DNA of 63,346 bases, the filler included, from Stramenopiles sp. TOSAG23-6 (taxonomy: Eukaryota): assembly GCA_900128565.1 (NCBI GenBank). It is 20 parts of 20 records of this genome, joined end to end, with 100 filler letters (N's around TTAATTAATTAA, not from the genome) between each part and the next. Parts side by side here need not be neighbours in the genome. Positions count along the whole stretch, not along the records: positions 1 to 3,098 come from LT637655.1; 19 more parts are not named here. One strand, 5' to 3'. Under the pieces are notes generated by a model. The model made no database searches. It saw only the letters and a program-made list of their open reading frames with translations, and was not told the DNA's origin. Below are positions 1 through 43,321 of this stretch, one piece after another. Position 1 is the stretch's first letter. Every line of letters starts with the position of its first letter. The translations under genes were made by a program, and so were the position numbers.

Positions 1-1143
1 CAAAACATCAAAGTGCGTCCTTATTTGTATATATATGTAATGATACATTCGGAAGCCTAGCAACAGTCACTGGCGGAAAGTCAGGTGGCATTGTTATTAT
101 TGCAGGAACAGGTTCAAACTGTTGCATCGTCGGAGCATCGGGAAAGACAACCAACTGTGGTGGTTGGGGTCATATGTTAGGTGACGAAGGTAGTGGATTT
201 TGGATTGCAAAAACTGCAGTAAAAGCCGTGTATAATAAACTAGACAATTTTGATTCGTCGGCACTAGACAATTTTCACCAGGGCAAGTGGTCAAAGCAGC
301 CTCTATCTGTATACCAATTGAGACAAATGGTAAATAACTATTTTAATATTTCAAATCCATTTGATATCATGTATGTTTTATTTTTTTTCAATTTCGAATT
401 TATTGTTTTTTTCGTACGAAATTTTGTACCTAACGAAAAAACATTTGAAATATTTTTCCAAAATACATTGCTCATTTATACACTTCTTTTGATAAAGCTA
501 AATTTGCAGCGTTTACACTAAAAGTTGCTGAAGCTGCACATGACGGAGATCTTTTATGTATAGACATTTTCAAAAGGGCAGGAAGTTATCTCGCAAGACA
601 CATTCTTGCTGTTATTCGTAGTGCTAATGCATGTACGTTTGATATGAATTTCTAATTTAATTTTTTTTTTCATACGAAATTTCGTACCTAACGATTTTTT
701 TAACTAACTTTTTTTTTCACAATACATGGAGCATTGATGGAAATGCAGATTTATTAAACATGATAGAAAGTTCCTCTACAAAAGTTGTTTGCACAGGTTC
801 AGTCTGGAAAAGTTGGAGTTTATTACAGTCTGGTTTTGAAGAAGAATTGAAACAAGGTGTTTTAGTACAGTCTGGTTTTGAAAAAAATAACGATAAAAAA
901 CAAAAAAAGATTACTACTGAAAGAAATAAATCAAACAGTCACGAAATTCAACAAGTGCATTTTAATGACTTAAATTTGCAGTTGGTTTCTCTGAAAGTGT
1001 CAAGTGCTGTAGGTGCTGCATATTTAGGTGTCGTTAATGATAATAAATTATCACAAAAAGAGTTTGGTGTTGAGAAGTTTGTTTTGAATGAAAACTATAA
1101 TGTCATGCGTTCATATAAAATCAAATTGTATAAAAAAAAATAA
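1..1143 (+). CDS. NAGK: N-acetylglucosamine kinase (BadF/BadG ATPase family), 5'-partial; exons <1-370, 469-632, 728-1143
   Basis: Motifs GIVIIAGTGSNC, CGGWGHMLGDEGSGFWIA and VVCTGSVWKSW. Removing introns 371-468 and 633-727 (both GT..AT) restores DIIAHLYTSFDKAKFAAF. Confidence 0.9.
371..468 (+). mobile_element. Representative copy of a dispersed introner-like intron family (more than 35 related copies in the window, both strands)
   Basis: Consensus GTAYGTTTT..T-rich..TTCGAATT..TTCGTACGAAATTTTGTACCTAAC..T-rich..TTGAAATATTTTTCCAAAATACAT, sense to the host gene in intronic copies. Confidence 0.75.
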
Positions 1144-3038: not shown

Positions 3039-3098
3039 GTATGTTTTCAGGATCAATTTTAAATTTATTTATTTTTCATACGAAATTTTGTACCTAAC

Positions 3099-6102: not shown

Positions 6103-6478
6103 TTTTGATTTCGTGTTATAACGGCCGAAAAGCGCCGTAAAATAGAAGAAAAAAAAGAAGACATAAACGTAGGCAGACACAGGTGATTTCGCGGAGGAGA
6201 GTATACTTATTATGCTATAAATAATGCGATGAGGAAAGTTAAGAGGGAGAGTAATTTGAAGCAAGACTTGGCGGCTTCGAGAATACAGGCANNNNNNNNN
6301 NNNNNNNNNNNNNNNNNNNNNNNNNNNNNNNNNNNTTAATTAATTAANNNNNNNNNNNNNNNNNNNNNNNNNNNNNNNNNNNNNNNNNNNNAAAAAAAAA
6401 AACTTAAATTCGTTAGGTACAAAATTTCGTACGAAAAAAAAATCGATTTTTTTGGTAAAAAAAATAAATAAAACATAC

Positions 6479-8942
6479 ATCCTTTCGTCCTTATCAAGCT
6501 TTGCAATTAATGTATGAGATACTGTAAAATCGTTCTCAGACATCACATGAGGTTTCATTACATCAGTTTCATTTAATAATTGAATAGTGAGTGGCAGTTT
6601 GTAAATTTTCTTTTTTGGTTTTTTTGTTTTCTTTGGTTTTTTTGGTTTTTCGATCTTTTCCGTGTTTTCATCATCTTTTGTAGATGACTTTTCTTCATCA
6701 TCATCATCATTAGCATCTTTTGTAGATGACTTTTCTTCATCATCATCATCATTAGCATCTTTAGTAGATGACTTTTCTTCATCCTCATCATCATTAGCAT
6801 CTTTAGTAGATGACTTTTCTTCATCATCATTATCATCATCATCATTATCTTTAGTAGATGACTCTTCTTCATCAACAACATCTTCAACAGGTAAAATTTC
6901 TTCAAAGATTGCCTCTGCCTTTACAAGTCCTACAAGACCATTTTCATCAAGAAAAAAACTTAAATTAATTTTTGGCTCATCCAAATTTGAATATTTTTCA
7001 TCTTTCAATAAATCTTCAAGTCCAGATACGTCATATAGAGCAATGTCTTTGGCCGTACCTTCAGGAAGACTAAAGACTTTTGATGTATCGTAACGAAGCT
7101 TACATGTGAAATCAGAAGAATGTTTAAATTGTACTAATTTTCTAGAGACAAGTTTGTTGTTTCGTTTGAATAAAGTAGTACGTTTTGACCATATCTCAGG
7201 ATTAGGATTAGCCTCTGAAATATCTTCCATATCAGTGGGTAGTTTGTCTGCCAGACGAACGCCAACAGCAAAAGGTAAAATATCTTGCATGCCAACATGT
7301 TTTGTGAAAAAATATTTTTTTTTTTTTTCCGGTAAAAAATTTGTTAGGTACAAATTTTTTTGAAAAAAATAAATAAATTCGAAATTGAAAAAAATAAATA
7401 AATTCGAAATTGAAAAAAAAATAAATAAAACATACATGTCTCACACGAAATGCTTTAGATCGATTGGCTGCGTGAAACGCTGCACCCAAGGCCATCCCTT
7501 CATCTCCGTTGATATGCACAGCTAAATGCGTTGTATTTAAATGTTCTCTAAGCATTTCTTGAATTTTTGGAATGCGCACAGAACCACCAATGATTTCAAC
7601 CTCATCAACATCATTCACATCAATTCCTGCATCTTCTAAAACACGGTCTATAGGTTTCATAGCTTGAGCTAAATCTGCAGCAATTTTTTTTTCAAACTCT
7701 CTGCGAGTAATGACAAAACCACGTAAATCTTTATCTTTGTCCACACTCTCAATAAACACTGGGATTCTTTCATTTGCAGACAAAACTTCTTTGGTCTTTG
7801 TTGCTTGTTTTTGTATTTTAGCCCAAGATCTAGGTACGGTACGGACATCGTAATCAGGAAATTTTCCATTTTTGTTGACTACATTTGTATTAAACTCATC
7901 AGCAATCATGTTGGCAATGGACTGATCAAAATACGACCCACCAACNCCNTCTTCCCAGTGTTTTGATATTATCTCAAANTGAGANGAGACGACTTCTTTA
8001 CCTAATCGTTTTGTATTACGTGCTGTATAATAGGCAAGTGANGCTTGAACACTATTCGCACCCATATTGTAAAACAAAACACGATGNGTTTTGTTTTCGT
8101 ACGTACGATCAATCCCGTATTGTACGGCGGCTGCCGTGTTTTCATCAATTAACGAAATTACGTTTAATTTCGCGACTTTAGATGCATCGATTAAGGCACG
8201 CTTTTCCGTCTGTGTGAAAAAGGAAGGGACAGTGAGTACAACGTCATTAATTTTGGCATTCGCTTCTGCTTCGCCAATTTGTTTTGCATAGATCAAAATC
8301 ATGCCCATAATTTCTTCGACACTGTATTCTTCAGGCATNGAGACGTCATCAGAATGTTTTGATTCATAGAATGTATAGAGATATTAACGAGTTGTATATT
8401 GATAAGAAACAGGGAAATGGTCTCTGAAAAGTGTAAAAAGGAAAAAATATTTCACAGTTCTTTCTAATTTTTGCTTAGGTACAAAATGTCATACGACAAA
8501 AACAATATGGATTGGAATTAGGGTTAGGGTAACGTACGTCATACAAAGAGTTCTTGATTCGAAGAGAACCACGGGTATCATCTTCCACCAAAGTATGGTG
8601 AGACAAGAAAGTTTCAGATACTTTCCTAGTTATTGGATGAGTACTGTTACGTCCAAGCAAAGTGCGTGCAAATGTAAATGTTTGCAAAGGTTTACGCGTC
8701 ATCAAATTCTTTGCATCACCCGCAAACTGGCGAGCATTTTCATCATTAAATGCCATTGCAGTCTCTGTTTTACGCTTTGATGCTGTATTGGTAACAATTG
8801 TAAATGGATTGCCCGGTTTCACCAAAGCTACTTTAAAAAATAAAGAACCTAGATCAATACCAAGGACTAGAGCGGACGTCACGTGAAACGAAGATGCAAA
8901 CAGCAAAAGTGACATTACGAATGTTCTAATAGAGAAACGCAT
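6479..8942 (-). CDS. HYOU1: ER Hsp70-family chaperone HYOU1/GRP170, 3'-partial, copy 1
   Basis: Signal peptide, VLGIDLG, VVLTVPSFF, IIGGSVRIPKIQ, INGDEGMALGAAF and an acidic repeat region. Intron 7297-7435 (GT..AT) joins FRVRH|VGMQD. Confidence 0.9.
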
Positions 8943-9312
8943 GTTAAATGACTATTGTAGAGATATCTGAAAGACAAAAGTTTGATCGTTTGACGCGTCT
9001 ACTTCTGTTGGTGATACTAAATGAATGTAAGCTGCAGAGAATAAAATATAATGTTTGTAAGACTGAAATTACTTGCTTGCGGTTCTCGAGAGGAACTCAT
9101 CTGAGATGAACAACAAAACTGTTTGGTTTTGCGACGTGGCCAAAAAAAACAATATAAGCAGGTTTGTGCATTTAAAAAAAATCCAAAATAACGGCTACAA
9201 TCTAGATATGTCCACGGGTATCTAGCTAGCTAGGTATATCTTATCCGAATAACGGTTATCTACACCGTACAGTATCATTTCAAGAAAATAAATCTAAAAG
9301 ATTTCAAAAAGA

Positions 9313-9483
9313 ATGAAGAAGGTTATATCATTAAGCTTTGCTGCAGCAAGCGTACACGCATCAGGATCTGCAATAACTCCTCGTGAACTGGTTCTTGGAA
9401 ACCCCCAATGGAATGTCCTTACGAATACGTTTAATGAGAACTTTAACTCTAGCACGGAATACCGTACTCTAATGGCTCGTCTG
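9313..9483 (+). CDS. Hypothetical protein N-terminus, divergent from HYOU1 (repeated at 28399-28569)
   Basis: ATG-initiated open frame running into the linker, with a hydrophobic start. Confidence 0.4.
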
Positions 9484-9633: not shown

Positions 9634-10231
9634 GAGTGATGCTGACTCTATTCCTCCTCTTCGAGCTCGAACTCGTCATTTTGATGGCTCACGTCCATCA
9701 AGTCGTCATGGTGAAGAGGGCCACGAAGAACTTTTATTCAAGACACTTGAATCCCTACGACAAATTTCTAAAGAAGAAGGTATCAGTATGACAAATTTGT
9801 ACGTTTTCAATCATTACAGTACATTCACAAGAAAAAAAAAATCCTACGAAATTTCATACCTAACAAATTTTGAATTTTTTTTTCTAAAAATATTTTTTTA
9901 CATCACTTGGCGCTATCTTTTCCCTTAGCTACAAAGGCTGTGTGTAGTGTTGTCGCAGGAGCAACAAAAGAAAATCATTTGACATGTACGTTTTCAAAAT
10001 TGAATTTCAAATTTATTTTTTTAGAAAATTTTGTAGTAACGAATGATTTTTTCTAAAAAAAAAAAAAATATATATATATTTTCAAACAATACATCGAATG
10101 TCGCTGGCGTTGGAACAAAATTAACACCAAATTTACTTCAAAAATTGCAAAAGGCTACAGAAAAGTTGAAAGATGCAATGGGGAAGAATTGTGATGTATG
10201 GCAAGGAAAAGGTAATAGTCGCATTCGATAG
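9634..10231 (+). CDS. Aldo-keto reductase C-terminal part; introns 9799-9908 and 9986-10094
   Basis: Spliced GISMTNLALSFPLATKAVCSVVAGATKENHLTSNV matches the AKR pattern (xxLALxxxL...V.SV+.GA....HL..N). Confidence 0.7.
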
Positions 10232-11299: not shown

Positions 11300-11841
11300 A
11301 TGTTAATTCGCTCTCTCCAATCGATAGTTTCTCGCACTCGCCATGTTTCAGCGAAACGTGGGTTTGCATCCGCCTCTACTACGTCGACAATAACTCCGCC
11401 AACTTCAACGTCTCATGAAAAGATGAAGTCAGACAAACGCTATAAAAAGGTTACTGTTGTCCCAGATTCTTTGACTGAAAATGCTCCACAGGAAGCGTTT
11501 TCTATCAAGGGTCAATTTCTTGATGGACGACCTGCATATCTTGATGCTCAGGCAACAACTCCACTTGATCCACGTGTATTAGAAGTGATGATGCCTTACA
11601 TGGTTTCACAGTATGGAAATCCACACTCACGGACACATTCATACGGTTGGGAAGCTGAAGCTGCCGTTGAAAAAGCTCGTGGTCAAGTAGCTGATTTAAT
11701 TGGATGTACCTCAAATGAAATTGTATTTACTTCAGGGGCAACAGAATGTAATAATATGGCAATTAAAGGTGTCGCTCGATTTTACTCGAAGCGTAAAAAG
11801 CACATAGTAACTACTCAGACGGAACACAAGTGTACGTTTTC

Positions 11842-11872
<31 letters not shown>

Positions 11873-12606
11873 GTCCACAATTTTTTGCCAAACGAATTTT
11901 TTTTTTTCCAAAAAAATTTACCGAAAAAAAAAAAAAAAAATATTTTTTCACGGTATATGTGTCCTTGACTCTTGTCGAATCTTGGAGCAACAAGGATTTG
12001 ATATTACATATTTGCCTGTCAAAGAGAACGGTTTAGTCGATCTAGGTGAGCTCGAAGCAGCCATTCGACCAGGCGAGACTGTTCTCTGCTCTGTTATGGC
12101 AGTTAATAATGAAATTGGCGTTGTCCAACCCTTGAAGGAAATTGGAGCACTTTGCAGAAAAAATAAAGTTTTTTTTCATACTGATGCCGCTCAAATGGCG
12201 GGAAAAATGAAAATTGATGTTGATGAACTTAATATTGATTTAATGTCAATCAGTGGGCATAAGTTATATGGACCAAAAGGTGTTGGAGCTTTATATGTGT
12301 AGGTTTTTAGTACTCATTGTATACTATTTTGTTTTTGGTCATTTTTTTTTCAATTTTTTTTTCAATTTTTTTTAGATTTTTTTTTTTTGTAATTTTTTTC
12401 ATAGTAAATTTTGTACCTAACAAAAAATAACAAAAAAAAAATATTTTTCACAATATAGACGTCGACGACCAAGAGTGCGTTTGGAAGCCATAATCAATGG
12501 TGGTGGTCAAGAGCGAGGTCTTCGCAGTGGTACTTTGCCACATCCTTTGATTGCTGGTTTGGGTGAAGCAGCTGAAATTTCAAGTCAAGAAATGGAGAGA
12601 GATCAT
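11300..12606 (+). CDS. NFS1: Mitochondrial cysteine desulfurase, 3'-partial; introns 11832-11958 (GT..AT) and 12299-12458 (GT..AG)
   Basis: Transit-peptide-like start, [58 protein letters not shown]. Confidence 0.95.
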
Positions 12607-13114
12607 GTACTTTTTTTTTTTCTTCAATTTAAAAAAAAATTTCATACGAAATTTCGTACCTAACGAATTTNNNNNNNNNNNNNNNNNNNNNNNNNNNNNN
12701 NNNNNNNNNNNNNNTTAATTAATTAANNNNNNNNNNNNNNNNNNNNNNNNNNNNNNNNNNNNNNNNNNNNCTGGTGGTTTAAGTCCAGGAGAATACGTTC
12801 GTCTTTCAAAACAAAGTGATCAAAACGCTGTAGTAGAAATGAATTCAGCTTTGTCTTTAAAAGTATGTAAAGGTTTAACGTATAGAAAGAACAAGGATAA
12901 AGATATAAATGGAGACGAATTTTGCAGAATAGTATGGAAAGGTCATTTACACTAATAAAGAAATCCAAGATAGTATTGCTTTATTGTTACCAGTTTCATT
13001 TTTTAACTATAAATAGTAAATCATATCATGGTTCAGAAAAAGCAGCAATTGAGCTTAAATTTTATTTTTTTCCCACTGTGTACAAATAGAGAAGTTTCAC
13101 TTTGAGGCGAGTAT

Positions 13115-14518
13115 TCAATATGGATGTAAGCGAGATACTACATTTCTTTCCTCTCGGTTATATCGAGATGATAGAGGGTTAGGATTACGGTATCGAGAAC
13201 TACGGTTAGGATTATGGTATCGAGAACTACGGTTCGCATAAAGACGTTCTTGACTGCTATGTTGTCGTCGGCGGTCCGTATCATGAGTCCCTTGACGTGC
13301 ACCTCGAAGAGCAATAATATGAGCTATATCTCTGTCTATATCTCTGGTTGAGTAAGGGGATGAATAACGACGTCCTCTGTATGAAGCAGGTACTCCATAT
13401 GCAGAGGAACTGGAACTTTGTAAGCGTTCCATCAACTGTTGTCTTTCGCGTTCTTGAGACGCTCGTGCTACTGCAACATCTTGAGATTCTAAATCAGCCC
13501 GAGCTTGAGAACCATCAGCGTCAGTATCTGGAAATAACTCTTCAAGTGGTGGTGCTGGCTCACGTTCAACACTATGAAGGAAGAACCACTGAGATATCTC
13601 AGTTTTCAAATCTTCATCAATCTTTCGTTCACAGTTATACGGAATAGCTTCTCCTGTGTAAGGATGCCGTATTTCTAAATGGTCAAGTACCATTTTCTGT
13701 CTACTTGTCAAAAATCTCTCAGAAGAAACTTTCATCTGCTTGAGTTTGCTTTTTCTGGCGCGTGAGAGAAGAAATTCAATTGTTTTTTTGTCAAGTGGAG
13801 GCTCCATCTTTTTACCTTTAAAATAGAAATTCATTGGATCATTCATTGGAACTAATGTGAGAGGATCAATGTATTTTTCAGGGATTTCCTTATCTTCCGT
13901 TGTGCTGGATGTCGAATCTTTTGATTCAGTTGTAGCGATCATGGCAGCTGCACCCTCACTAGTTTCATTGAGCTGTTGCATTTCGCTATTTTGAGAGTCA
14001 TCAGTGTCAACTTCTTGAGACTCAAAAACAGCAGGAGCTTGAGAGCCACCAGCGCCAGACTCTTGTTCAAAATTTAAATCTCCGGGTGGGCTAGATAGCA
14101 TGATACCTTCGCTGTCTTCATTGTCTTCGCTCTCTTCACTTGACACCTCTGGAGTATTTGACTTGATCCCGGTTGAAGGCTGAAAGTAGCGCATGCGTTT
14201 TTGCCGAAGTTCCTGACGACGAAGTTCATTTTCATCTATAGGAGCTACTATAGGCACATGGTCAGTTTGGTTTTCAAGTTTAGGTGTAGCTTCAAGATCT
14301 TCAGTTGCGCTTTTAGATTCTTCAAATTCCTGGGGGTGTTTAGTTGAATCTTTCAACGACGCAGCAATAGCAGCAGAAATCATCGCTTCTTCGGCGGTAA
14401 TTTGCTGAGAAAAAGCATGACGTGGAGGGGGACTTTCAATGTCGCGAGATTGAGTAGATGCGTAGCAGAGATCAAGTGCTACCACAAAACTCAACGCAAG
14501 TAATTTAAAATGAAACAT
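13115..14518 (-). CDS. Intronless protein with putative signal peptide, UIM-like motif and U-box-like domain
   Basis: MFHFKLLALSFVVALDLCYA; EEAMISAAIAASLKD; IPEKYIDPLTLVPMNDP...LDKKTI...HPYTGE...LKTEISQW. Confidence 0.65.
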   Translation of the reverse strand: MFHFKLLALSFVVALDLCYASTQSRDIESPPPRHAFSQQITAEEAMISAAIAASLKDSTKHPQEFEESKSATEDLEATPKLENQTDHVPIVAPIDENELRRQELRQKRMRYFQPSTGIKSNTPEVSSEESEDNEDSEGIMLSSPPGDLNFEQESGAGGSQAPAVFESQEVDTDDSQNSEMQQLNETSEGAAAMIATTESKDSTSSTTEDKEIPEKYIDPLTLVPMNDPMNFYFKGKKMEPPLDKKTIEFLLSRARKSKLKQMKVSSERFLTSRQKMVLDHLEIRHPYTGEAIPYNCERKIDEDLKTEISQWFFLHSVEREPAPPLEELFPDTDADGSQARADLESQDVAVARASQERERQQLMERLQSSSSSAYGVPASYRGRRYSSPYSTRDIDRDIAHIIALRGARQGTHDTDRRRQHSSQERLYANRSSRYHNPNRSSRYRNPNPLSSRYNREERNVVSRLHPY

Positions 14519-14769
14519 CTTATCGAACAATCTCCGGTTGTGTCCAGAAATTTGTGAGATATTACTAATTTAAAAAGAGAATACTTAATGTCTTTAACAA
14601 CACACAAGTCGAAGTGTCAAACATCAAATACCAGTGATTCTACCTGACTTGATGTCATTTTTAAATTTTGATGGCCGCAAAATAAATTGTATTTCGTGTT
14701 TGCGTTTGCAGCAACAATTAAATTATTTAATTAAAGTTAATTTTTTTCAAATTGTCATTCTTTTATTCT

Positions 14770-15956: not shown

Positions 15957-18025
15957 AACTTTTTACTCGTGCACAAAACAGATTTCTCAAATTACAAATT
16001 CATTCTTCTAGTGAATTATGTACTGTATGTTTTCAGGATCAATTTAAATTTATTTATATTTTTATAAAAATTTTGTACCTAACAAAAAAAATGAAAATAT
16101 TTTCCTACAATACATACTAATAAAGGCAATGAGAATACTATTTTAAAAGTGATTGACTGGGGCACAGAACCAGATGTAGATTCAATTCTTATTGAACAAA
16201 ACAATAGTGACATTCAACTTGTAAAATTATTACATGTTTGGCTTGAGGGTGAAGGTGCTACCATTAGAGACAAATGTAGAATTTTTTTGAGACCGACAAA
16301 AAATGAAGAAATCCCATTACACCGTATCACAAATTCATGTATGTTTTATTTTTTTTTTCAAATTTGAATTTGTTTTCTTATGAAATTTTGTACCTAACAA
16401 TTATTTTTTTCAAATATTTTTCCAAAATACATAAACATCCTGGGGGAATCAGACATGACCATTCTCAAATATATGGAAGGATTGAACCATTATGTTATGA
16501 AGTGTATGTTTTATTTTATTTTTATTTCAATGTTGAATTTATTTTTCGTACACAATTTTGTACCTAACAAATTTGTTTTTGAAATATTTTTCCAAAATAC
16601 AAAACTTGTATTGGTAACGGCAACAAATGTTTGGTATTTACAGTGCCTGAATTTGGATCAAATGTTAGTAGATTGTTGCGAGACGATTTGGGTCGTGCCG
16701 GTGTTGTTCGCAGTGAATCAGAATTAAGAATATTTTGCTGGACTTCAGGTTTTCGCTTCCCAAAGCAGACTTCTTTTGAGAAATCTGAGTTCTATAAGTT
16801 GAGCAGAAAAACAACAGCACTTGAACTGACAGAACGATTTCGCGAAAGAGGCATTATTCCGAATGATGTTCAGTTCCTATGCCAAGGTAGTGTTGGTGGT
16901 AAAACAAGGGTCATTGGCCATGCTAGGTCAGCCTTTTTGTATGTTTTCATTATGAATTTCAAATGTATTTTATTTTCATACAAAATGTTGTACCTAAATT
17001 ATTTTTTTTATTTTTGAAATATTTTTTCACAATATATAAAAGATGGTGGAAGTAGAAAAGGCTTCGACATATTGCAAAATCATACGTCGGAAGAAACTTT
17101 CGATGGGCTTTGTGGAACACTTGTGCATCCGCATTTTGTAAAACTCGGACGTATGGGTGTGTACAAAGTGGCACTGGAAAGAGCACCCAACAAAGAGGAG
17201 TTTCGTAAGAAGTATCAAAAACTTTTGGATGAGTATGGTTTGGAAGAAGCCGGCAAATTTGCTAATGTTGTGGCATATGGATCATGTGGTGAAATTCTTA
17301 GTCAAAAGCACGTCAAATGTCATTATGACAAGGAAGGCAGCCTTTCTAGTGAAATTATCTGCACGAATACCGTCCAAGGTATACGTCTATGGACGAACTA
17401 TAAATGTGATAAATGTGGAGATTGGCATCGATCTCGTGTTGTAGTGCAAAAGACAACAAATAATGGTGTAGTATCCGCAAAAATTGGGTGTACTGTTCAT
17501 TGTAAAAAAACGAAAACTATTAAGTCATTTGATCATGCATATATTGAAAGAGTTCCCTTTCATTTTATCAATGAAGATTGTTTCAAAGGTTGTCGATGTT
17601 TTATTTGCGCAAATGAACATTCAGATAAACCTGTCAATATTGAAAAACCTAAGAAAAGAAGTAAAGGTACTCTCAGCATTGGAACAATTATAGAACTTGC
17701 TGATGCGAAACGTCTGAAACATATTGAAGATGAACATGAAAAGCATCCAAACAGGCAAAAAAAAACCCTCAAGCAAGAAAATCCTATAAGAGAAGATCTT
17801 ACACGTTTCGTAAAATGCACAAAAAATGGAGAACCAAATCTTACCCTAATCCAGTCTAGTTCAAAAGGTGATTTGATGGTGCGAATTGGTGGTAAACATG
17901 GTAAAACTATTGCAATCAGCGGAGTGAAAAATCTTGAAATGGTTCCGTTTTCGTGTCCTCGAGGTGAATCTTGTCCGTGTACATTTTGTGAAAGACGTCG
18001 TAACAACTTAAAAGAAGAAGACTGA
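15957..18025 (+). CDS. Multi-exon hypothetical Cys/His-rich protein, 5'-partial
   Basis: Four family introns (16025-16115, 16339-~16430, 16504-~16602, 16939-17037) connect the ORF segments. CxxC and CxC clusters in the last exon. Confidence 0.6.
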
Positions 18026-20879: not shown

Positions 20880-21297
20880 ATTGAAAGATAATACTGTTAC
20901 AGATGGAGANATATAGAGGAGGAGGAGGAGAAGATATATACGCGCGAAACAAAGAAAAAATTANAAAACATTTGAATTTTTTTGAATTTTTTCGCGCAAA
21001 ATTTGCTTGTTCGAATTTATTTTAATTGTGAAAAAAAAAAGTTGATCAAAAGATGAGAGAGAGATCAGCATCACACGAAAACTCGTGAAAACTAAGCTAA
21101 ATAAAAATTCAACATGTTTTCGACAATATTTTTTTTTACTTATACGTAAATTATATAATATATAATATTCTATATATAATATAACAATATCATTTCCAAA
21201 AAATTATAATTTATTTTATAATTTTTTGATTTTTTTGTATGAAATTTTGTACCTAAGAATATTTTTTTTCATACTACATTTTGTACTTTACATATAT

Positions 21298-22218
21298 TTA
21301 CATTACGAGATCTTCTGGATTTGTTGACGAAGAAAGACCTTCATCATAATTTTGTTGAATTCTCTCCGTCCAATATGAAAAATTGTCATTTTTTGTACCA
21401 AATTTCGTACCTAAAGATGATGTCGTTGTTTTCGTACCAATTTTCGTAGTTATAAAAGTACTTTTTGTTTTCGTAGACAATTTTGTGCCTAAGGAATTTT
21501 CAGTAAATGTTTTTACACAATGTTTTGATGAAATTGTGTTTTCAGATATATATTGTGAATTTCTTTTTTTTTTTTTAAATTTTTTTTGTTAGGTACGAAA
21601 TTTCGAACGAAAAAAAAAGTTTAGATTAGAAAATTCAAAAAAATAAACCATACAGTGGACAAATTTGTATATTTGAAGAATGCAAAGATCTTCCTAGTAC
21701 AATATTAGAGCCCCCAGGAAATTGTAATCGTTGTTGAATACACATTTTAAAACCAACTAATATTATAGTAAAGCTTGTGCTTAAATTCAAAATTCTTCTT
21801 AATACATGTACAATGTCAAATATATTTTAAATGAGTAAAAAGCTCACAAGTATAAAACATTATAATGAGTATTTCTTGTAATAAATACAACATAGAGTCT
21901 TCTCCGAGCATCGGTGTCCATAGGAACAGGTGAGATCAAAACTAAATCTTTTCCATTTTTAGTCGTCCCGAAATCATTTGTGTTTTTAATTGATGCATAT
22001 ATCAAATTTTTTTCGTCTCTGTCGCAATTTTCTCGACATTTATCGAATAACTCATGATGTGTTGAATCAAGTGAACATCTTCCATTTTTGAAATTGAATT
22101 GTTGTGTTATTGTTATTTCACCGCAACTGTGTCGTCTTACATCATTTCCTTTCACAACTCCAGATTCACAAATTACAGTAACATGTTTATCACAGACTTG
22201 ATCTTTGGTAATCAAGTA
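21298..22218 (-). CDS. Partial paralog of the downstream membrane protein with a different spliced C-terminus
   Basis: About 21895-22218 is nearly identical to about 19384-19707. Further exons ~21654-21805 and 21298-21547 join in frame via a GT..AT intron at 21548-21653. Confidence 0.5.
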
Positions 22219-25395: not shown

Positions 25396-25582
25396 NNNNN
25401 NNNNNNNNNNNNNNNNNNNNNNNNNNNNNNNNNNNNNNNTTAATTAATTAANNNNNNNNNNNNNNNNNNNNNNNNNNNNNNNNNNNNNNNNNNNNAAAAA
25501 AAAAAACTTAAATTCGTTAGGTACAAAATTTCGTACGAAAAAAAAATCGATTTTTTTGGTAAAAAAAATAAATAAAACATAC

Positions 25583-28028
25583 ATCCTTTCGTCCTTATCA
25601 AGCTTTGCAATTAATGTATGAGATACTGTAAAATCGTTCTCAGACATCACATGAGGTTTCATTACATCAGTTTCATTTAATAATTGAATAGTGAGTGGCA
25701 GTTTGTAAATTTTCTTTTTTGGTTTTTTTGTTTTCTTTGGTTTTTTTGGTTTTTCGATCTTTTCCGTGTTTTCATCATCTTTTGTAGATGACTTTTCTTC
25801 ATCATCATCATCATTAGCATCTTTTGTAGATGACTTTTCTTCATCATCATCATCATTAGCATCTTTAGTAGATGACTTTTCTTCATCCTCATCATCATTA
25901 GCATCTTTAGTAGATGACTTTTCTTCATCATCATTATCATCATCATCATTATCTTTAGTAGATGACTCTTCTTCATCAACAACATCTTCAACAGGTAAAA
26001 TTTCTTCAAAGATTGCCTCTGCCTTTACAAGTCCTACAAGACCATTTTCATCAAGAAAAAAACTTAAATTAATTTTTGGCTCATCCAAATTTGAATATTT
26101 TTCATCTTTCAATAAATCTTCAAGTCCAGATACGTCATATAGAGCAATGTCTTTGGCCGTACCTTCAGGAAGACTAAAGACTTTTGATGTATCGTAACGA
26201 AGCTTACATGTGAAATCAGAAGAATGTTTAAATTGTACTAATTTTCTAGAGACAAGTTTGTTGTTTCGTTTGAATAAAGTAGTACGTTTTGACCATATCT
26301 CAGGATTAGGATTAGCCTCTGAAATATCTTCCATATCAGTAGGAAGCTTGTCTGCCAGACGAACGCCAACAGCAAAAGGTAAAATATCTTGCATGCCGAC
26401 ATGTTTTGTGAAAAAATATTTTTGTTTTTGTACAATTTGTTAGGTACAAAATTTTTTGAAAAAAATAAATAAATTCGAAATTGAAAAAAAATTTTGTTAA
26501 AAAAAAATAAATAAAAAATACATGTCTCACACGAAATGCTTTAGATCGATTGGCTGCGTGAAACGCTGCACCCAAGGCCATCCCTTCATCTCCGTTGATA
26601 TGCACAGCTAAATGCGTTGTATTTAAATGTTCTCTAAGCATTTCTTGAATTTTTGGAATGCGCACAGAACCACCAATGATTTCAACCTCATCAACATCAT
26701 TCACATCAATTCCTGCATCTTCTAAAACACGGTCTATAGGTTTCATAGCTTGAGCTAAATCTGCAGCAATTTTTTTTTCAAACTCTCTGCGAGTAATGAC
26801 AAAACCACGTAAATCTTTATCTTTGTCCACACTCTCAATAAACACTGGGATTCTTTCATTTGCAGACAAAACTTCTTTGGTCTTTGTTGCTTGTTTTTGT
26901 ATTTTAGCCCAAGATCTAGGTACGGTACGGACATCGTAATCAGGAAATTTTCCATTTTTGTTGACTACATTTGTATTAAACTCATCAGCAATCATGTTGG
27001 CAATGGACTGATCAAAATACGACCCACCAACNCCNTCTTCCCAGTGTTTTGATATTATCTCAAANTGAGANGAGACGACTTCTTTACCTAATCGTTTTGT
27101 ATTACGTGCTGTATAATAGGCAAGTGANGCTTGAACACTATTCGCACCCATATTGTAAAACAAAACACGATGNGTTTTGTTTTCGTACGTACGATCAATC
27201 CCGTATTGTACGGCGGCTGCCGTGTTTTCATCAATTAACGAAATTACGTTTAATTTCGCGACTTTAGATGCATCGATTAAGGCACGCTTTTCCGTCTGTG
27301 TGAAAAAGGAAGGGACAGTGAGTACAACGTCATTAATTTTGGCATTCGCTTCTGCTTCGCCAATTTGTTTTGCATAGATCAAAATCATGCCCATAATTTC
27401 TTCGACACTGTATTCTTCAGGCATNGAGACGTCATCAGAATGTTTTGATTCATAGAATGTATAGAGATATTAACGAGTTGTATATTGATAAGAAACAGGG
27501 AAATGGTCTCTGAAAAGTGTAAAAAGGAAAAAATATTTCACAGTTCTTTCTAATTTTTGCTTAGGTACAAAATGTCATACGACAAAAACAATATGGATTG
27601 GAATTAGGGTTAGGGTAACGTACGTCATACAAAGAGTTCTTGATTCGAAGAGAACCACGGGTATCATCTTCCACCAAAGTATGGTGAGACAAGAAAGTTT
27701 CAGATACTTTCCTAGTTATTGGATGAGTACTGTTACGTCCAAGCAAAGTGCGTGCAAATGTAAATGTTTGCAAAGGTTTACGCGTCATCAAATTCTTTGC
27801 ATCACCCGCAAACTGGCGAGCATTTTCATCATTAAATGCCATTGCAGTCTCTGTTTTACGCTTTGATGCTGTATTGGTAACAATTGTAAATGGATTGCCC
27901 GGTTTCACCAAAGCTACTTTAAAAAATAAAGAACCTAGATCAATACCAAGGACTAGAGCGGACGTCACGTGAAACGAAGATGCAAACAGCAAAAGTGACA
28001 TTACGAATGTTCTAATAGAGAAACGCAT
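25583..28028 (-). CDS. HYOU1: HYOU1/GRP170 copy 2 (alternative assembly path or haplotype of the 6392-9483 contig)
   Basis: Same sequence and same N positions as copy 1, except around intron 26401-26521. Confidence 0.88.
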
Positions 28029-28669
28029 GTTAAATGACTATTGTAGAGATATCTGAAAGACAAAAGTTTGATCGTTTGACGCGTCTACTTCTGTTGGTGA
28101 TACTAAATGAATGTAAGCTGCAGAGAATAAAATATAATGTTTGTAAGACTGAAATTACTTGCTTGCGGTTCTCGAGAGGAACTCATCTGAGATGAACAAC
28201 AAAACTGTTTGGTTTTGCGACGTGGCCAAAAAAAACAATATAAGCAGGTTTGTGCATTTAAAAAAAATCCAAAATAACGGCTACAATCTAGATATGTCCA
28301 CGGGTATCTAGCTAGCTAGGTATATCTTATCCGAATAACGGTTATCTACACCGTACAGTATCATTTCAAGAAAATAAATCTAAAAGATTTCAAAAAGAAT
28401 GAAGAAGGTTATATCATTAAGCTTTGCTGCAGCAAGCGTACACGCATCAGGATCTGCAATAACTCCTCGTGAACTGGTTCTTGGAAACCCCCAATGGAAT
28501 GTCCTTACGAATACGTTTAATGAGAACTTTAACTCTAGCACGGAATACCGTACTCTAATGGCTCGTCTGNNNNNNNNNNNNNNNNNNNNNNNNNNNNNNN
28601 NNNNNNNNNNNNNTTAATTAATTAANNNNNNNNNNNNNNNNNNNNNNNNNNNNNNNNNNNNNNNNNNNN

Positions 28670-31573: not shown

Positions 31574-31885
31574 AAAAATTTTTTTTTTTTTAAGTAAAAA
31601 AATTCCGAAAAAAAAAAAAAAAAAAAAAAAATATATATATAATTTTGAAAACGTACATATACGATAATTGTACAATAAATTCTTTTGAATTGTTTTCACT
31701 TTCAATAGTATGTATACGANTCACAGGGATTCGATCAACAANNNNNNNNNNNNNNNNNNNNNNNNNNNNNNNNNNNNNNNNNNNNTTAATTAATTAANNN
31801 NNNNNNNNNNNNNNNNNNNNNNNNNNNNNNNNNNNNNNNNNAATTCTAGTTTTTTTTTTTTTTGAAATATTTTTCCAAAATACAT

Positions 31886-32368
31886 GAATAATTTCTTCAC
31901 TGCCCAACGATTAGTACTCGTAACGTTTCTACGTGTCATAATTTTATTTGCATTTTTTGCGACGACTACGTTTCCTTTAAAAAAACCAATGAACACTTTT
32001 GCTCTTGCTGAAACTTTTATTGTTGTGTTATTGGGATTGTCGAACGGATGTATGTTTTCAAAATTTCAATTTCGAATTTACTTTTCGTACGAAATTTTGT
32101 ACCTAACAAATTTTAATTTTTTTTTGATTTTTTTTACTAATTTCGAATTTATTTGTTTTGTAGAAAGTTTTGTACCTAACGATTTTTTTTACCAAAAAAA
32201 AAAAAAATATTGTTTCACAATACATGGTTATGTACGATAACAATGCTCAAAGCACCTTTGATTGTACCAGTCACTTCGGCTTCCCAAGCAGGTTTGTGTA
32301 TGACTTTTTTTGTGCTCCTAGGTCTGACTTTTGGTATATTTGTGTCAAGTGCAATTCCTGATTTGTAA
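31886..32368 (+). CDS. Equilibrative nucleoside transporter C-terminus; intron 32050-32225 (GT..AT)
   Basis: Spliced LLGLSNGWLCTITMLKAP...AGLCMTFFVLLGLTFG matches ENT TM10-11. Confidence 0.75.
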
Positions 32369-32572
32369 AAAACGGTTATATTATAAAGAATAGTATATTA
32401 ATAATTAAATTGTAGTCTCGTCTCGTCTATTTTTCTCAATTTAACAGATGAATATTCAGAATTCAGAAAAAAAAAAATCGAAATCGTCTCGTCGGGTCAG
32501 CTCGCTTGCGCGTTGGCCAAGTTTCTTAAGCAGTCACATATCTCATGAAAAGTTCTGTACTAGTGTGTTACA

Positions 32573-34853
32573 ATGGCAACATCTGTACAAAAATATAGTC
32601 AAATTGAACTACCACCACGTCTTACTGACGTACTCCGGTTAGTTCTAACAAATAGAGGAGTTCCCGTTGATATCAGTGGTGAATTTGATGCACGGCTTCG
32701 GCTATTTTCTAAGAGACAGGCAATGCCATCTACTGATTCTTTCACGTGGTCTTTTTTCTCACGTATGCGTTCTTCTCTTGCCCCAGTTCAAACACGTACC
32801 GAACAACAAAAGATTCGCGAAAAATTTGCAATGTTTGTCAAACTATCTGGACAAGCAGTTGGTGATGATGGAGAAAGTTTTGGAATAGCAAGTGTTGCAG
32901 CAAAGACAATACTACGAATTGCAGTGCGTTCCATTACAAATACCTTCACACGTTTTCAAATAAAAGCTCTAATATCAAAGGAGTTTGATATTATTTATGA
33001 TTATAATAAGATAGAAAATGCATTAAAGGTCGGGAGAGAACTGTATGAATGGCTTCAATCAAGTTCGTCAACTCTACGAAAGGATATATTCCGAGATAAT
33101 ACACAATTTGGACAAGATATTGAAATTGCCACCGCGAGTGATAGTATTAGTTTACCCATACCTCGACATCTTTTAAGAACAACAAACACTGCGACATCTA
33201 AAAGTTCATTTGATAAAATTAGTTCTATTGGAGTTGGCACTCAGAAAATTCGAAATTCCGTAGGTAATTCCAGTACAAAAAACAAAAAAAACATTTCGAA
33301 TTTGCCAAGTTCTACCCCTCTGTCTGGTTCTAATCAAAATATCAAAGCAGACGCTCAGTGGCTAGTATGTGTTTGTGAGCAACACCTTGCTATAGCAGAA
33401 TCATCTGGGAATTTTGATGGGACAAATATTTGGACTGCACAGACATTAGCTGAGCAAGTTATTTCTCTTTTTCGTTCTGATTCTGATGATAGTCAATTAC
33501 AAGCTGATCTTTTTGGCCTTTTCGGCGTTGCAGGATTTGATACTATCGCCGAACTATTTCAAAGAAAAGACGAAATTGTTGACATTAACTTAAATGAATT
33601 ATTCATATATTCTACACAAAATGTACGAAATTCCGTACCTATTTCCGTATCTAAAGGTCCACATATTGGATTACGTGTCACTTCAAAAGCAGAGAAAAAT
33701 GCTGAGAAACAAGAAAGAAAACGTTCTCGTCGTTTTGGTAGGCACATGAATGCACAATCCAAAAACAATCAAGTTCATATGAATAGTGGGAGTAGTCTTC
33801 TTCAACATCTTGGTTTCTCTGAAGAATATTTAGATGAACAGCACGCGTTAGGTTTGAAAACTTTATCTAAATCTCGTACGTTTTCATTTCAAGTTCGAAT
33901 GTAGTTTTCTTTTTTTATAGTAAATTTTGTACCTAACAAACTTTAATTTTTTTTTTAAATATTTTTTCTAAAATAGGTGCAGATCAAGGTGTCAGTTTAC
34001 GTAAAAGAATGGGACTGGGTAAAGCTTTTATTGGTAAGCATAACACTGGACTACCACCGGGCACTATACGACAGCAATTCAAAGGATATGAAGAAGTTCG
34101 TGTGCGTTTTTAGTATGACTATTTTTGTCTTTTTTGTTTTCATACGAAATGTTATACCTAACGTTTTTTATTTTTTTTTGAAATATTTTTCGCAGTTCAT
34201 GTCCCTGCTTTGCAAGCACGTAAAAATGAACAGGAACGATCTCCTGTTCTAATAAATTCCTTACCTGAATGGGCACAACTAGCATTCAAAAATACAAAAT
34301 CCTTGAATAAGCTACAATCTGCGTTATTTAACGTTGCTTTTGAATCTAGTCGCAACATGCTTGTATGTGCTCCCACTGGTGCTGGTAAAACAAATGTTGC
34401 AATGCTAACAATATTGCGAGAAATTTCCCTCCATATTCAAAATTCCAAAATTGAAAAAAATGATTTTAAGATTGTATATGTTGCTCCGATGAAAGCTTTG
34501 GCTCAGGAAGTAGTCACAAAATTTTCTCAGCGTTTGAAATCCCTTGGTATCAAAGTTGCTGAGTTGACCGGGGATATGCAAATGACAAAAAAAGAAATTT
34601 CTGAAACGCAAATAATGTATGTTTTATTTTTGTTTCAATTTCGAATTTATTTTTTTATAAAAAATTTGTACCTAACGAATTTTTTTTTGAAATATTTTTC
34701 CAAAATGCATTGTAACTACACCTGAAAAATGGGATGTCATTACACGAAAAGCAGGGGATGGCTCTTTAGTGGAAAAATTACGACTCCTAATTATCGACGA
34801 GGTGCACTTACTAGCTAGTGACAGAGGGGCTGTTATTGAAGTTTTAGTGGCAC
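32573..34853 (+). CDS. ASCC3: Ski2-like helicase ASCC3/Slh1, 3'-partial; introns 33876-33976, ~34102-34200, 34617-34710
   Basis: [64 protein letters not shown]. Confidence 0.82.
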
Positions 34854-35093
34854 GTTTGTTTTATTTTTTTCAAATTCGAATTTTTTTTCGTACGAAATTT
34901 TGTACCTAACANNNNNNNNNNNNNNNNNNNNNNNNNNNNNNNNNNNNNNNNNNNNTTAATTAATTAANNNNNNNNNNNNNNNNNNNNNNNNNNNNNNNNN
35001 NNNNNNNNNNNAAAAAAAAATCTAAAAAAATTTGTTAGGTACGAAATTTCGTACGAAAAAAAAAATTAAATTAGAAATTCATATAAAACATAC

Positions 35094-35623
35094 ACTGACT
35101 TGAAGCTTACTGTGTAACTTATCACTTAAGGATTTTAGAGAATTCATCTGTTTATCAGTTAGTTTACCTTCCATCATTTCTCTTGAATGTGTTTTAGAAA
35201 AATATTTCAAAATTTACTATAAAAAAAAAATTGTTAGGTACAAAATTTTTATAAAAAAAAAAATTCGATGTTTTTTTTTTTTACCGAAAAAAAAAAAAAA
35301 AATAAAAACATACATGTTGCTCACGAGATATTAAACCTTCCACTTCTTTATATCGACTTCCAACATCATTTACAATATTTCCAATTTTTACAAGAACTTC
35401 ACCACGATGCCCATCCATTTTTGAATGTATTTCATCAGTATACCGTTGTAAATTTGAATGAAATTTTGCATCCATTGAGGACACATCATCGACAATTACT
35501 TCTCGTGCACGTGCATGCTCATCAAATGAATTTTGGAAAAATATTTCAAAAAAAAAATTTTAAAATTTGTTAGGTACGAAATTTCGTACGAAAAAAAAAA
35601 TTCGATTTTTTTTTTTTTTTACC

Positions 35624-35654
<31 letters not shown>

Positions 35655-36659
35655 CATACATGAACCACGGATGTGTTCTTTTAATTGGTCATGTTGACGT
35701 TGATGGTCACTTAAAACTTTTTCATGATTTCCAAAAGATGTATGTAAACCTCGTATCTTTGGCTCCAATTGTTCTTGGTATGTATTTTGGAAAAATATTT
35801 CAAAATTTTTTTACCGAAAAAAAAAAAAATGTTAGGTACAAAATTTTCTACCAAAAAACGAAAAAAAAAAAATTATTCAAAAAAAAAAAAAAAAAACATA
35901 CATTGGCGTTGTATTCGTGCATGATCCTCAAATTGACCTTGAATGTGGTCTACGAGGGTATCATGAGCAGTTTTGTGTTCCTGTACTGTTTATGAAATAT
36001 TTTGTTACAATTTGTTACAATTTGTTACAATTTGTTACAATTTGTAGAAATACTCTTTTTCAAAAAAAAAAAAAAAAAAAATCTTAGGTACAAAATTTCG
36101 TATGAAAAAAAAAACGTACATTTAATGTGGTCTGAAAGCCATAGATACTTTCATCAGCCTTCCGATGAGCGCCTTCCATTTTTAAATCTATCTCACCCCA
36201 ATTTTGATCATACTTTTGAAACCTAGAATCAACTCTTCCAACAAATTCTTCATGATTTAGTTTATGCCTTTCTGTTGCTTCTTCCAAAGCTTCAACTGCC
36301 TTCATTGCATTTTGAGATTCAGTATCTATTCTTGAGTTATACTTCCGCTCGTGCTCGAGTATCGTTTTATCAACCAAATGCTGATGATCTTCAAATATTC
36401 TTGCATGTTGAGCTGCAATTTTAGTTTCAGACATTCCCATTTTACGTTCAAGATTTTCAAGACCTTTTGTAATTTCTCTTGTGACGCGATCGAAACTGTC
36501 TTCGATAATGACACGGTTTTTTTCTTCTTCAATGAGTCGTAATTCGATCTCCCTTGTTTTATCTTCAACCAATTTAAATTTTGCATCTAAAATATCAGAT
36601 GCAGTTGTAAAGGCACCACCTGCAGTCAATTCACCACTACTCACTGGTGAAATATTCAT
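35094..36659 (-). CDS. Coiled-coil hypothetical protein with 5 exons, 3'-partial
   Basis: Introns 35981-36119 (AG) and 35780-35901, 35526-35659, 35187-35313 (all AT) give one continuous frame. Confidence 0.7.
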
Positions 36660-37966: not shown

Positions 37967-38244
37967 GTGTGTTGTATTTTTTTTTTCAATTTTTTTTTTT
38001 TTTGATGTTTTTTTCATACGAAATTTTGTACCTAACAATTTTTTTTTTTTTGGTAAATTTTTAAATATTTTTCCAAAANNNNNNNNNNNNNNNNNNNNNN
38101 NNNNNNNNNNNNNNNNNNNNNNTTAATTAATTAANNNNNNNNNNNNNNNNNNNNNNNNNNNNNNNNNNNNNNNNNNNNTTCATACGAAATTTTGTACCTA
38201 ACAAATTTTAGTTTTTTTTTTTGAAATATTTTTTCAAAATACAT

Positions 38245-40625: not shown

Positions 40626-40726
40626 GTATGTTTTATTTTTTTTCAAATTTGATTTTTGTTTCGTACGAAATGTTGTACCTAANANTTTTTTTTAGATTTT
40701 TTTTGAAATATTTTTTCAAAATACAT

Positions 40727-41126
40727 GAATATAGCAATGCAATTAAGAAAATGTTGTAATCATCCATTTTTAGTGAATGGTGCTGAAGATGCAGAAAAAT
40801 CACTTTTAAAAGATAAATTTGGAAAAAAAATTAATCGTGAATTAAACACAGATGAATTATGTGCGGCTTGTACGTTTTTTTTTTTTTTTTTTTTTTACAA
40901 AAAAATCGATTTTATTTTTCATACGAAATTTTGTACCTAACGATTTTTTTTTTTTTGAAACATATTTTTGAAAAATACATCTGGAAAACTTGTTTTAGTT
41001 GATAAATTATTACAACGTTTAAAACAACAAAATCATCGAGTTTTGATATTTTCACAAATGGTACGAATGTTGAATATTTTGGAAGATTATTTAAATGGAA
41101 GAGAATATTCCTTTGAACGAATTGAT
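40727..41126 (+). CDS. CHD-type SNF2 chromatin remodeler, helicase-C fragment; intron 40870-40980 (GT..AT)
   Basis: [49 protein letters not shown]. Confidence 0.88.
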
Positions 41127-41375: not shown

Positions 41376-42085
41376 ACTTTTTGTTTTTGCCGTCGCACAC
41401 TCGCATTCTTTTCAACAGTGTGGCGGGCGTAAGTTGGGTATGTTACCTTAGCATAATGGGCCATAAGAGGGACCTTTAATTTACGCGGGGTTGGAAGTGA
41501 AACGCAGGTTGTGATATAAATAAATAAGAGACGGAAACATATCATATCATAATGATACATTAAATGAAATGATTTGGCAAACGCTGCGTAAGTCTTTCAG
41601 AGACTAGAGAGTACTTCTTTAAGTCAAGAAAATTGGCTGTTATTTAAGTAATTAAAATTAATGTACTGCGAACTGAATGTACTGCGAACTGAAAACTGAA
41701 AACTGAAATCTAGAGTGGAGTCCATGAACAATCCGAATCGGTATCTGGATTAGCAATGCTTGCAAATGAACCGTAATCAACTTCCTCAACCGATATCTCA
41801 CTCATAGGTGACTCAATCCTTGTGCGATTTTCCAAGCAGCGGCTTAATTGTTTTTGAGGTGCTCGTTGTCTGACTTGGAAATCGGTCAAGGGGTTTTTAT
41901 CTGTGTATTTTGTTTTTTTTTATACTAAAAACGCATAATTTTATAATTCATTTAAATTAAATGTTGTGGGTTCCATTTGCCCATACATTTCCAGGACGAC
42001 TCAATAATGGTACCACGGAAACAACTAATGTGCGAACACCTAGCATGAATCACAAATTCGAAGGCAAAATGTTCTGGAATCCAAA

Positions 42086-42682: not shown

Positions 42683-43321
42683 GACCTAATAGTATAAAGT
42701 GCAATACTTACAAAATCACCAAAACAAATTTGGGCAGTGAAAAGGCCTCATTCGACAATTTCTCACGATTCAGTGACAATATATCTCGACTAAGTGTCTG
42801 AGGTACACACTTCTCTCCGAAGACGTCAATATACTCTCTCTCTCTCGTATGAGTAGCCAGTTATTAGTTATTAGTAGCCAGTGTGTATGTGTGCAATTTC
42901 CCCCTCTTTTTCTATTGTTGTTTTTTTCATTATTCTTCATGCATCATTTACACTCCTTCTTATATTTATTAGAGAGCTGACAACGAACGTTTGCCGAAAA
43001 CAGCCTTTTTGTACATACACACAGCATGGTTTATTTTCGACGAAATTACTAGTTTTATCCAAACAAACTTTATTTTGATGTAGTTTTCCTTAACTAAAAT
43101 TACACTGCACAAGAGTAAAATAAACGTAATACTATTTATATATATTATTTTTTGTAAGGACCGAAAAAGTGTTTGTTCTGAATCTAGAACAAACACGTTG
43201 AACAAACTTAAAAATTTTTTTAAAAAGAGTATTAAGGGATTTTACTACAAAATATAAAGGAAGATGAGGCAAAGACAAAGTCAACGACTTGAAACGTGAA
43301 ACCCACCCATGGTTAAATATG

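Follow-up and report, generated by a model that had tools for sequence, protein, structure and literature searches.

About 55 copies or pieces of one intron family, most of the complete ones beginning with GT and ending with AT, occur in unrelated genes of a 63,346-nt stretch of DNA (hereafter, the window) from Stramenopiles sp. TOSAG23-6 (assembly GCA_900128565.1). The window comprises 20 unrelated contigs of 3053-3098 bases each, sorted by length and joined by N44-TTAATTAATTAA-N44 linkers, and adjacency across the linkers is therefore meaningless. The copy at the centre of the analysis is a 98-nt intron at positions 371-468, in an N-acetylglucosamine-kinase-like (NAGK) gene. It appears probable that the family is mobile, by one route or another, and the chances are about even that it is a family of introner-type elements, i.e., a small, non-autonomous DNA element of ~95-100 bp that resembles miniature inverted-repeat transposable elements (MITEs) and spreads by a DNA route.

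Members of the family are assembled from the same modules in the same order, with GTATGTTTT at the start, inner palindromes, a TTTCGTACGAAA-TTTTGTACCTAAC core, and GAAATATTTTTCCAAAATACAT at the end. In the focal intron, these modules are arranged as follows, with counts of matches in the window given in brackets:

371-468, + strand: focal intron, 98 nt, GT...AT, NAGK-like gene, with GTATGTTTT at its start and AAAATACAT at its end; phase 2, flanking frames fit
371-379, + strand: 5' splice-site module (extended donor) GTATGTTTT, by motif count (41 matches vs 3.12 expected from shuffles)
389-404, + strand: inner module CAATTTCGAATTTATT, which contains a TTCGAA palindrome (31 matches vs 5.99 expected from shuffles)
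410-421, + strand: 12-base perfect palindrome TTTCGTACGAAA (23 matches with at most one mismatch vs 0.33 expected; none of 100 shuffles reached 23)
422-434, + strand: TTTTGTACCTAAC, a branch-site-like motif (CTAAC) directly 3' of the palindrome, at a median of 40 nt from the 3' end across the family
447-468, + strand: 3' module GAAATATTTTTCCAAAATACAT, which ends in the AT acceptor (13 matches with at most three mismatches vs 0.05 expected from shuffles)

The fusion of the palindrome to TTTTGTACCTAAC, which a preliminary description of this DNA had presented as recurrent, was found intact over all 25 bases in eight places, four per strand, two of them being the same locus on duplicate contigs. 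An nhmmer profile, built from 14 complete introns and searched against the window (61 kb), gave 64 matches at E ≤ 1 and about 55 at E ≤ 0.01. Curation yielded 32 complete copies, corresponding to 31 independent ones since contigs 3 and 9 duplicate one locus. Their lengths run from 70 to 217 nt, so that the 90-220 nt initially quoted was too narrow at its lower end, while the recurrence in unrelated genes that went with it held good. End-to-end identity between introns of unrelated genes reaches 0.89 (0.70 for shuffled sequences) with a median of 0.66 (0.60 for shuffled sequences), and many copies are therefore well diverged. Spacing from the donor to the core is concentrated at 51-59 nt. Moreover, discrete variants common to different genes, such as an CGGTAAAA...ATCGA insert, point to subfamilies, and several introns possess internal duplications of the core.

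In one such variant the TTCGAA module is replaced by an A-run and then an ATCGA(T/A) palindrome, often after (C)GGTA or ACC; this form was found at 35187-35313, 35526-35659, 6392-6478, 40870-40980, and 50616-50725. A probable intron at 47950-48163 (- strand) contains four tandem core-like units (AACTATGAAATTTTGTACTT) and ends in GCAT, and the core can therefore be amplified inside an intron.

The proposal that a single family supplies most of the introns was borne out, as all 23 of the frame-verified introns in the window, in unrelated genes, are members, and no intron outside the family was verified there. An ordinary short intron was considered at 62016-61972 (- strand; 45 bases, GTAAGT...CTAAC...CAG) and was rejected on account of flanking frames that do not fit. 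Searches of the window for RNA families and for transfer RNAs returned 0 matches each, with no RNA family within the introns.

The 3' ends of the 32 complete copies are AT in 25 cases, AG in 6, and AA in 1. These boundaries were examined by a frame test, in which a codon-usage score trained on the window's long open frames identified the best frames on both sides of each copy, and the removal tested extended from the G of GTA(T/C)GT through the last base of the 3' motif. Frames were decisive for 25 introns, of which 23 fit, namely 17 of the 19 that end in AT and all 6 that end in AG, where chance would give one in three. Twelve of the frame-verified introns are in phase 1, six in phase 2, and five in phase 0, with no excess of phase 0.

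Homology leads to the same boundaries. In the gene for mitochondrial cysteine desulfurase (NFS1), alignment to human NFS1 (5usr_A) breaks off at residue 126 where the exon meets position 11832 and picks up again at residue 128 in the exon that follows 11958; the one residue skipped corresponds to a codon that the intron at 11832-11958 would split. Similarly, the exons of an ASCC3/Brr2-like helicase around 34617-34710 end at residue 184 and resume at residue 186 of 4f91_B. In the focal gene, the exon is homologous to human NAGK from base 470 (residue 203 of 2ch6_A), and no AG occurs between the branch motif and position 472. As judged from these protein alignments, the three non-AG introns are placed with a precision of one codon or close to it. 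Taken by itself, the focal intron would yield an identical mRNA in the AT-AC and TG-CA registers; both registers are ruled out by the introns at 16504-16602 (where the exon ends in GT and the intron in AA) and 40265-40444 (where the exon ends in AC), which fit only a GT...A(T/A) register. Finally, in 20 of the 25 AT- or AA-ending introns, use of the first AG beyond the boundary would break the frame. Frames, homology, the register of these two introns, and the out-of-frame AGs together indicate that the acceptors are truly non-AG, in keeping with the use of AT acceptors that had been suspected. From the frames and the homology we infer that the family copies are removed as introns. Two further introns contribute nothing to this count: the second NFS1 intron (~12297-12458), for which GT-AT, GT-TA, and GT-AG fit about equally, was excluded from use, and the first intron of an Hsp70-family gene (from 8537) has a 3' end that is not fixed.

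The donor is GTATGT or GTACGT in 26 of the 32 copies, and the CTAAC motif lies 33-103 nt from the 3' end, with a T-rich tract between. Read from sequence, this anatomy is that of major-type (U2-type) introns, neither minor-type nor euglenid-like, and removal would be the work of the U2-type spliceosome. In minor-type (U12) introns the donor consensus is RTATCCTT, the branch site is ~10-20 nt away from the 3' end, and several 3' end dinucleotides are tolerated. U12-type introns, including rare GT-AT cases, thus share the tolerance at the 3' end, but a minor-type identity was rejected because the donor here is GTATGT and the branch motif is situated at a median of 40 nt from the end.

The high copy number suggested at the outset is supported from outside the window as well. 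The same DNA is present in a small 2015 run, X1, which is probably its source, and in seawater metagenomes of 2023-2024, so the organism is a marine microbial eukaryote. When contigs of X1 and of three seawater metagenomes were matched to one 3-kb contig of the window (31842-34911), matches were obtained with 6243 of the 99,615 X1 contigs and with 5714, 2157, and 1884 contigs of the three metagenomes. Depth was 3-9 in exon bins and ranged from ~190 up to 1.4 million in intron-piece bins, the intron pieces being 100 to 100,000 times deeper than exons across these four data sets. These values are summed depths, which are not copy numbers and can be read only as "thousands or more", and they therefore indicate thousands of copies. 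The metagenome exon contigs are ~1% different from the window and break at the same four introns, which means that the introns are present there and that the family is not an artefact of one sample. Within the window, 12 of the 40 contig ends fall inside a family match (one of them, at 57138, doubtful) and six more fall in A/T runs typical of family introns, a result close to the 17 or so contig ends that the preliminary description had placed inside these introns. It is because of the repeated introns that assemblies shatter into 3-kb contigs. A scan of public metagenome contigs with a 17-base core gave 64 loci, none of which (0/64) possessed the surrounding element; these are chance matches.

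Nearly all matches at E ≤ 0.01 lie in the sense orientation relative to the flanking coding frames. The exceptions are a non-coding stretch at 21227-21653, where pieces occur on both strands, and a core-like antisense piece at 57156-57201 (- strand, E 0.0019) inside an open frame that encodes an IQ-motif protein at the start of a contig; this piece may be exonised or a chance match. Intron load is very uneven, with at least 8 introns in a 3-kb ABC-transporter fragment and none in open frames of 437-758 codons. Long intronless genes (484-758 codons) are located at 38212-40281, 54049-56325, 45971-47566, and 13115-14569, and intron-bearing genes elsewhere in the window have one intron per 200-450 bases.

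The ends of the consensus are complementary, as had been claimed: AT/GTAT (the slash marking the exon/intron junction) pairs with ATACAT, TTTT with AAAA, and, further in, TTTCAA with TTGAAA. The inverted repeat is short, with terminal pairing over 6+4 bases, two of them exonic, and the terminal helix appears in the minimum-energy fold of four of six copies and partly in the other two. The placement of AT both before the donor and as the last two bases was likewise confirmed for many copies (17 of the 31 independent ones); for the upstream exon by itself, AT is the last dinucleotide in 20 of 32 copies and T the last base in 28 of 31. Nevertheless, 7 of 24 AT-ending introns keep their terminal AT though the upstream exon does not end in AT, and none of the six AG-ending introns is preceded by AG; the last two bases are therefore part of the element consensus and not a simple 2-bp duplication. 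A different picture emerges with three bases. The last three bases of the exon equal those of the intron in 11 of 31 copies, compared to 6.0 when permuted (p 0.001), and within AT-ending introns the figures are 11 of 24 and 7.7 (p 0.017). In the subset with AT on both sides, only two introns have a base other than C at -3, and both match the exon (AAT/AAT and TAT/TAT). In the head-to-tail pair at 62806-62628, CAT occurs three times: ahead of the first copy, at the junction of the two, and at the end of the second. There is thus weak support for a direct repeat of 3 bases (NAT) that is specific to the locus, and it is in this form, rather than the 2-bp form, that the target duplication originally put forward survives. 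A locus-specific signal of this kind is used to call duplications in PMC9860276.

A mechanism can be envisaged for an introner-type DNA element with these features. Each copy carries a donor of yeast type (GTATGT), the fixed 3' end AAAATACAT, and, some 40 nt before that end, the strong branch motif TACCTAAC, together with a T-rich tract; the element's ends form an imperfect inverted repeat. Transposition would take place at the DNA level, with duplication at insertion and a preference for sites that follow (C)AT on the coding strand. Excision by the major-type spliceosome of the host would then begin with the G of GTATGT and end with the T of ACAT, so that the element and one copy of the repeated (N)AT would be removed and the reading frame restored. 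The last intron base would be relaxed, T being commoner than G and G commoner than A, and splicing may be helped if the last six bases of the intron pair with the junction between exon and intron. A more ambitious proposal, to which we would give somewhat short of an even chance, is that GT-AT is the organism's main intron class, that one mobile family seeded thousands to tens of thousands of introns, and that the U2-type spliceosome routinely takes U, and sometimes A, as the last base, the 3' cut being set by distance from the strong branch site and by pairing of AUACAU with AU/GUAU.

Several observations weigh against a DNA-level introner with duplicated targets. Two of the 19 AT-ending introns (9799-9903 and 16339-16432) misfit their frames, which favour an end one or two bases earlier, or sequence errors in what is a poor assembly. 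Exon contigs stop inside introns, those of the metagenomes included, with none bridging an intron, and neither an empty site nor a presence/absence polymorphism was seen. Fold energies are ordinary (z from -2.65 to +0.77 in six copies), and donor variants such as GTACGT occur without compensatory changes in the terminal helix. The 2-base repeat shows no locus-specific excess (17/31 vs 14.7, p 0.06; 17 vs 17.0 for AT-ending introns), and few copies underlie the 3-base signal. A Pfam scan of 20 open reading frames (ORFs), on contigs of only ~3 kb, revealed no transposase. Finally, the strict sense orientation is equally compatible with mobility via RNA, in which excised introns would reverse-splice after AT into other transcripts, be copied to DNA, and recombine, the complementary ends and the NAT then answering to splice-site needs. 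Such a route, though unlikely, has points in its favour: nearly all copies are in sense and inside genes, their boundaries are exact and without extra bases, the T found at exon position -1 in 28 of 31 copies resembles a site preference, and the missing transposase and the 2-base repeat without excess would both be expected. It accords poorly, however, with the match seen at the third base, which is specific to the locus (p 0.001 and 0.017), with ends that form an inverted repeat, and with the pieces on both strands of the non-coding stretch and the antisense core-like piece at 57156-57201; moreover, selection alone could purge antisense copies from the genes of a gene-dense genome.

It is also conceivable, if improbable, that the introns are old and non-mobile, and that they look alike either because splicing signals in this lineage are extended to an unusual length or because introns have been homogenised with one another. 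Donor, branch motif, and 3' end are indeed among the best-kept parts, and copies of the two main types score alike outside the profile's seed set, where 5 AG-ending copies average 23.1 bits and 13 AT-ending copies 24.3 bits; on this comparison there is no profile-score difference that would mark AG-ending copies as older, more decayed members. Conservation nevertheless extends to parts without a known splicing role and to spacing, and the discrete variants and internal duplications are common to unrelated genes. Genes of 437-758 codons are intronless while a neighbouring gene has at least 8 introns, and the phases (12, 6, and 5 for phases 1, 2, and 0) lack an excess of phase 0. Intron-rich genomes normally have weak, varied splicing signals, a further point against ancient introns. 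That amplification, assembly, or contamination created the repeats is scarcely credible, despite the poor assembly, the scattered N, the duplicate contigs 3 and 9, and the adapter-like start of contig 14, as the same elements are present in thousands of contigs from three seawater metagenomes of another study and year, with exons ~1% different, and as they are located exactly where frames and homology require an intron.

Bursts of intron gain are at present best explained by introners, which are common in marine protists, and introner elements of marine algae are reportedly the subject of work by Huff et al. in 2016. The present family is of the same kind as known introners and differs by its textbook donor and branch site with T as the last base in most copies. 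Introner elements with inverted repeats and duplications are known from many marine protists (PMC9860276, PMC11282704), and 5 to over 2,000 copies per family have been reported for marine algae (PMC9860276). Like the introners of Micromonas, Aureococcus, Chrysochromulina, and Symbiodinium, those described here are short, high-copy, and found in unrelated genes (PMC9860276, PMC11282704). Marine-alga introners often have inverted-repeat ends and short target duplications and carry one or both splice sites (PMC9860276, PMC11282704), with the target duplication being weakly supported in our case. They use GT/GC...AG, whereas 25 of 32 complete copies here end in AT and one in AA, and, on a rough comparison, the copy number here may exceed that of their families.

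Introners of Amoebophrya (Syndiniales) resemble the present ones: inverted repeats of 8-20 nt bring the two intron ends together by pairing, direct repeats of 3-5 nt span the borders between exon and intron, the ends are not GT-AG, and no transposase lies inside the element (PMC7789003). Their end dinucleotides are highly varied, with no clear donor signal and with parts of U1 seemingly missing (PMC7789003); here, by contrast, donor (GTATGT) and branch motif follow the canonical pattern closely, and the deviation is confined to the last base. The tunicate Fritillaria borealis offers another likeness in its MITE-derived introns, with inverted repeats, duplications, and a tolerant major spliceosome (via PMC11282704), but its introns commonly have AG-AC and AG-AT ends, with a non-canonical donor, whereas here the donor is GT and only the acceptor is altered. 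Fungal introner-like elements, for which an RNA reverse-splicing route has been proposed, likewise consist of hundreds of similar introns, in sense only, with predicted structure and decay to ordinary introns, but they are described as GT-AG introns without inverted repeats or duplications (PMC3609843, PMC9860276). Finally, the nonconventional introns of euglenids share the RNA-pairing ends and the duplication-like border repeats, but in them donor, branch site, and pyrimidine tract are not conserved, and they are released as circles of full length (PMC11282704); in the present family, the donor, the branch site, and the T-rich tract are all conserved. A literature search on marine GT-AT introns and on introners whose acceptors are unusual, which did not cover the surveys' supplementary family lists, found no description of this family, nor any of a last intron base that is relaxed throughout a genome while donor and branch site remain textbook.

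The element couples a complete, strong donor and branch site with an AT acceptor and thereby separates the signals of the first splicing step from the near-universal terminal G. If confirmed by RNA, it would provide a natural system for learning how the second splicing step picks a site without a terminal G, and the family allows one to ask whether tolerance of AT preceded or followed the invasion. On the practical side, gene finders that accept only AG will mis-annotate most genes of this organism and of its relatives in ocean metagenomes.

The remaining members of the family in the window are listed below; unless another basis is named, each is a complete copy examined by the frame test.

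633-727, + strand: GT...AT, NAGK-like gene; frames fit
3039-3098, + strand: cut by contig end; profile match
6392-6478, - strand: cut by contig start, with a duplicate locus at 25496-25582; profile match
7297-7435, - strand: GT...AT, Hsp70-family gene; the duplicate at 26401-26521 differs inside the intron
9799-9903, + strand: frames misfit GT...AT as drawn
9986-10094, + strand: diverged, GT...AT, branch motif GTAGTAAC
11832-11958, + strand: GT...AT, predicted to split one Cys codon of NFS1; homology to 5usr_A
12640-12670, + strand: cut by contig end; profile match
16025-16115, + strand: GT...AT
16339-16432, + strand: frames favour an end 2 nt earlier (TAC) or a sequence error; frame test
16504-16602, + strand: GT...AA; boundary shift impossible
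16939-17037, + strand: GT...AT (ATATAT)
21227-21653, both strands: non-coding stretch with family pieces at 21227-21268, 21386-21418, and 21454-21521 (+) and 21548-21653 (-); profile matches
31842-31885, + strand: 3' end of an intron at contig start; 3' module match
32050-32225, + strand: GT...AT, with duplicated core
33876-33976, + strand: GT...AG
34100-34195, + strand: diverged, GTGTGC...GCAG
34617-34710, + strand: GT...GCAT, predicted to split one ASCC3/Brr2-like helicase codon; homology to 4f91_B
34852-34911, + strand: cut by contig end; profile match
35012-35093, - strand: cut by contig start; profile match
35187-35313, - strand: GT...AT, variant with CGGTAAAA...ATCGAA insert
35526-35659, - strand: GT...TCAT, same variant as at 35187-35313 (CGGTAAAA insert)
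35780-35901, - strand: GT...AT
35981-36119, - strand: GT...AG
38005-38078, + strand: cut by contig end; profile match
38179-38244, + strand: 3' part of an intron at contig start; profile and 3' module match
40265-40444, + strand: GT...AT; exon upstream ends AC
40626-40726, + strand: GT...AT
40870-40980, + strand: GT...AT
47950-48163, - strand: probable intron with four tandem core-like units, ends GCAT; putative boundaries
48290-48506, - strand: GT...AG, with duplicated core, ABC transporter gene
48653-48821, - strand: GT...AAAT; exon upstream ends AAT
48962-49078, - strand: GT...TAT; exon upstream ends TAT
49665-49808, - strand: GT...AG
49949-50075, - strand: GT...AG
50616-50725, - strand: reaches contig end; profile match
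53771-53881, - strand: reaches contig end; profile match
60104-60193, + strand: cut by contig end; profile match
60294-60363, - strand: cut by contig start; profile match
62628-62806, - strand: two copies head to tail (62806-62737 and 62736-62628); complete copies
63006-63099, - strand: GT...AT; profile match, complete copy
63121-63196, - strand: short and diverged, GT...TCAT; complete copy

The genes of the window (G+C ~33%) are eukaryotic and unrelated to one another, and in addition to the NAGK-like protein, NFS1, and the ASCC3/Brr2-like helicase they encode cation efflux, armadillo, MYND, IQ, and PLAC8 proteins (Pfam). The window's peroxiredoxin, used as a query, matched only generic eukaryotic clusters and gave no finer taxonomic placement. 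An AP2 domain guessed for 57861-59174 was discarded, with 0 Pfam families matched.

Contigs 3 (6392-9483) and 9 (25496-28569) represent the same Hsp70-family locus, with N at identical places, and they are identical over 3 kb except in or beside the intron at 7435-7297 (26521-26401 in the duplicate), which is present in both. The differences comprise two indels and about eight substitutions in the intron, plus four substitutions within 60 bases downstream, and they may reflect either allelic variation or mis-threading of the repeat by the assembler.

Elsewhere, two paralogous gene pieces on the - strand of one contig (19191-20960 and 21853-22212) have a long, near-identical protein stretch in common, and the non-coding DNA between them contains the mixed-orientation family pieces. 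The start of contig 14 (41352-41375), which resembles a sequencing-adapter sequence, may be a library artefact, and the same contig is richer in G+C, at 0.42 over 42001-44000.

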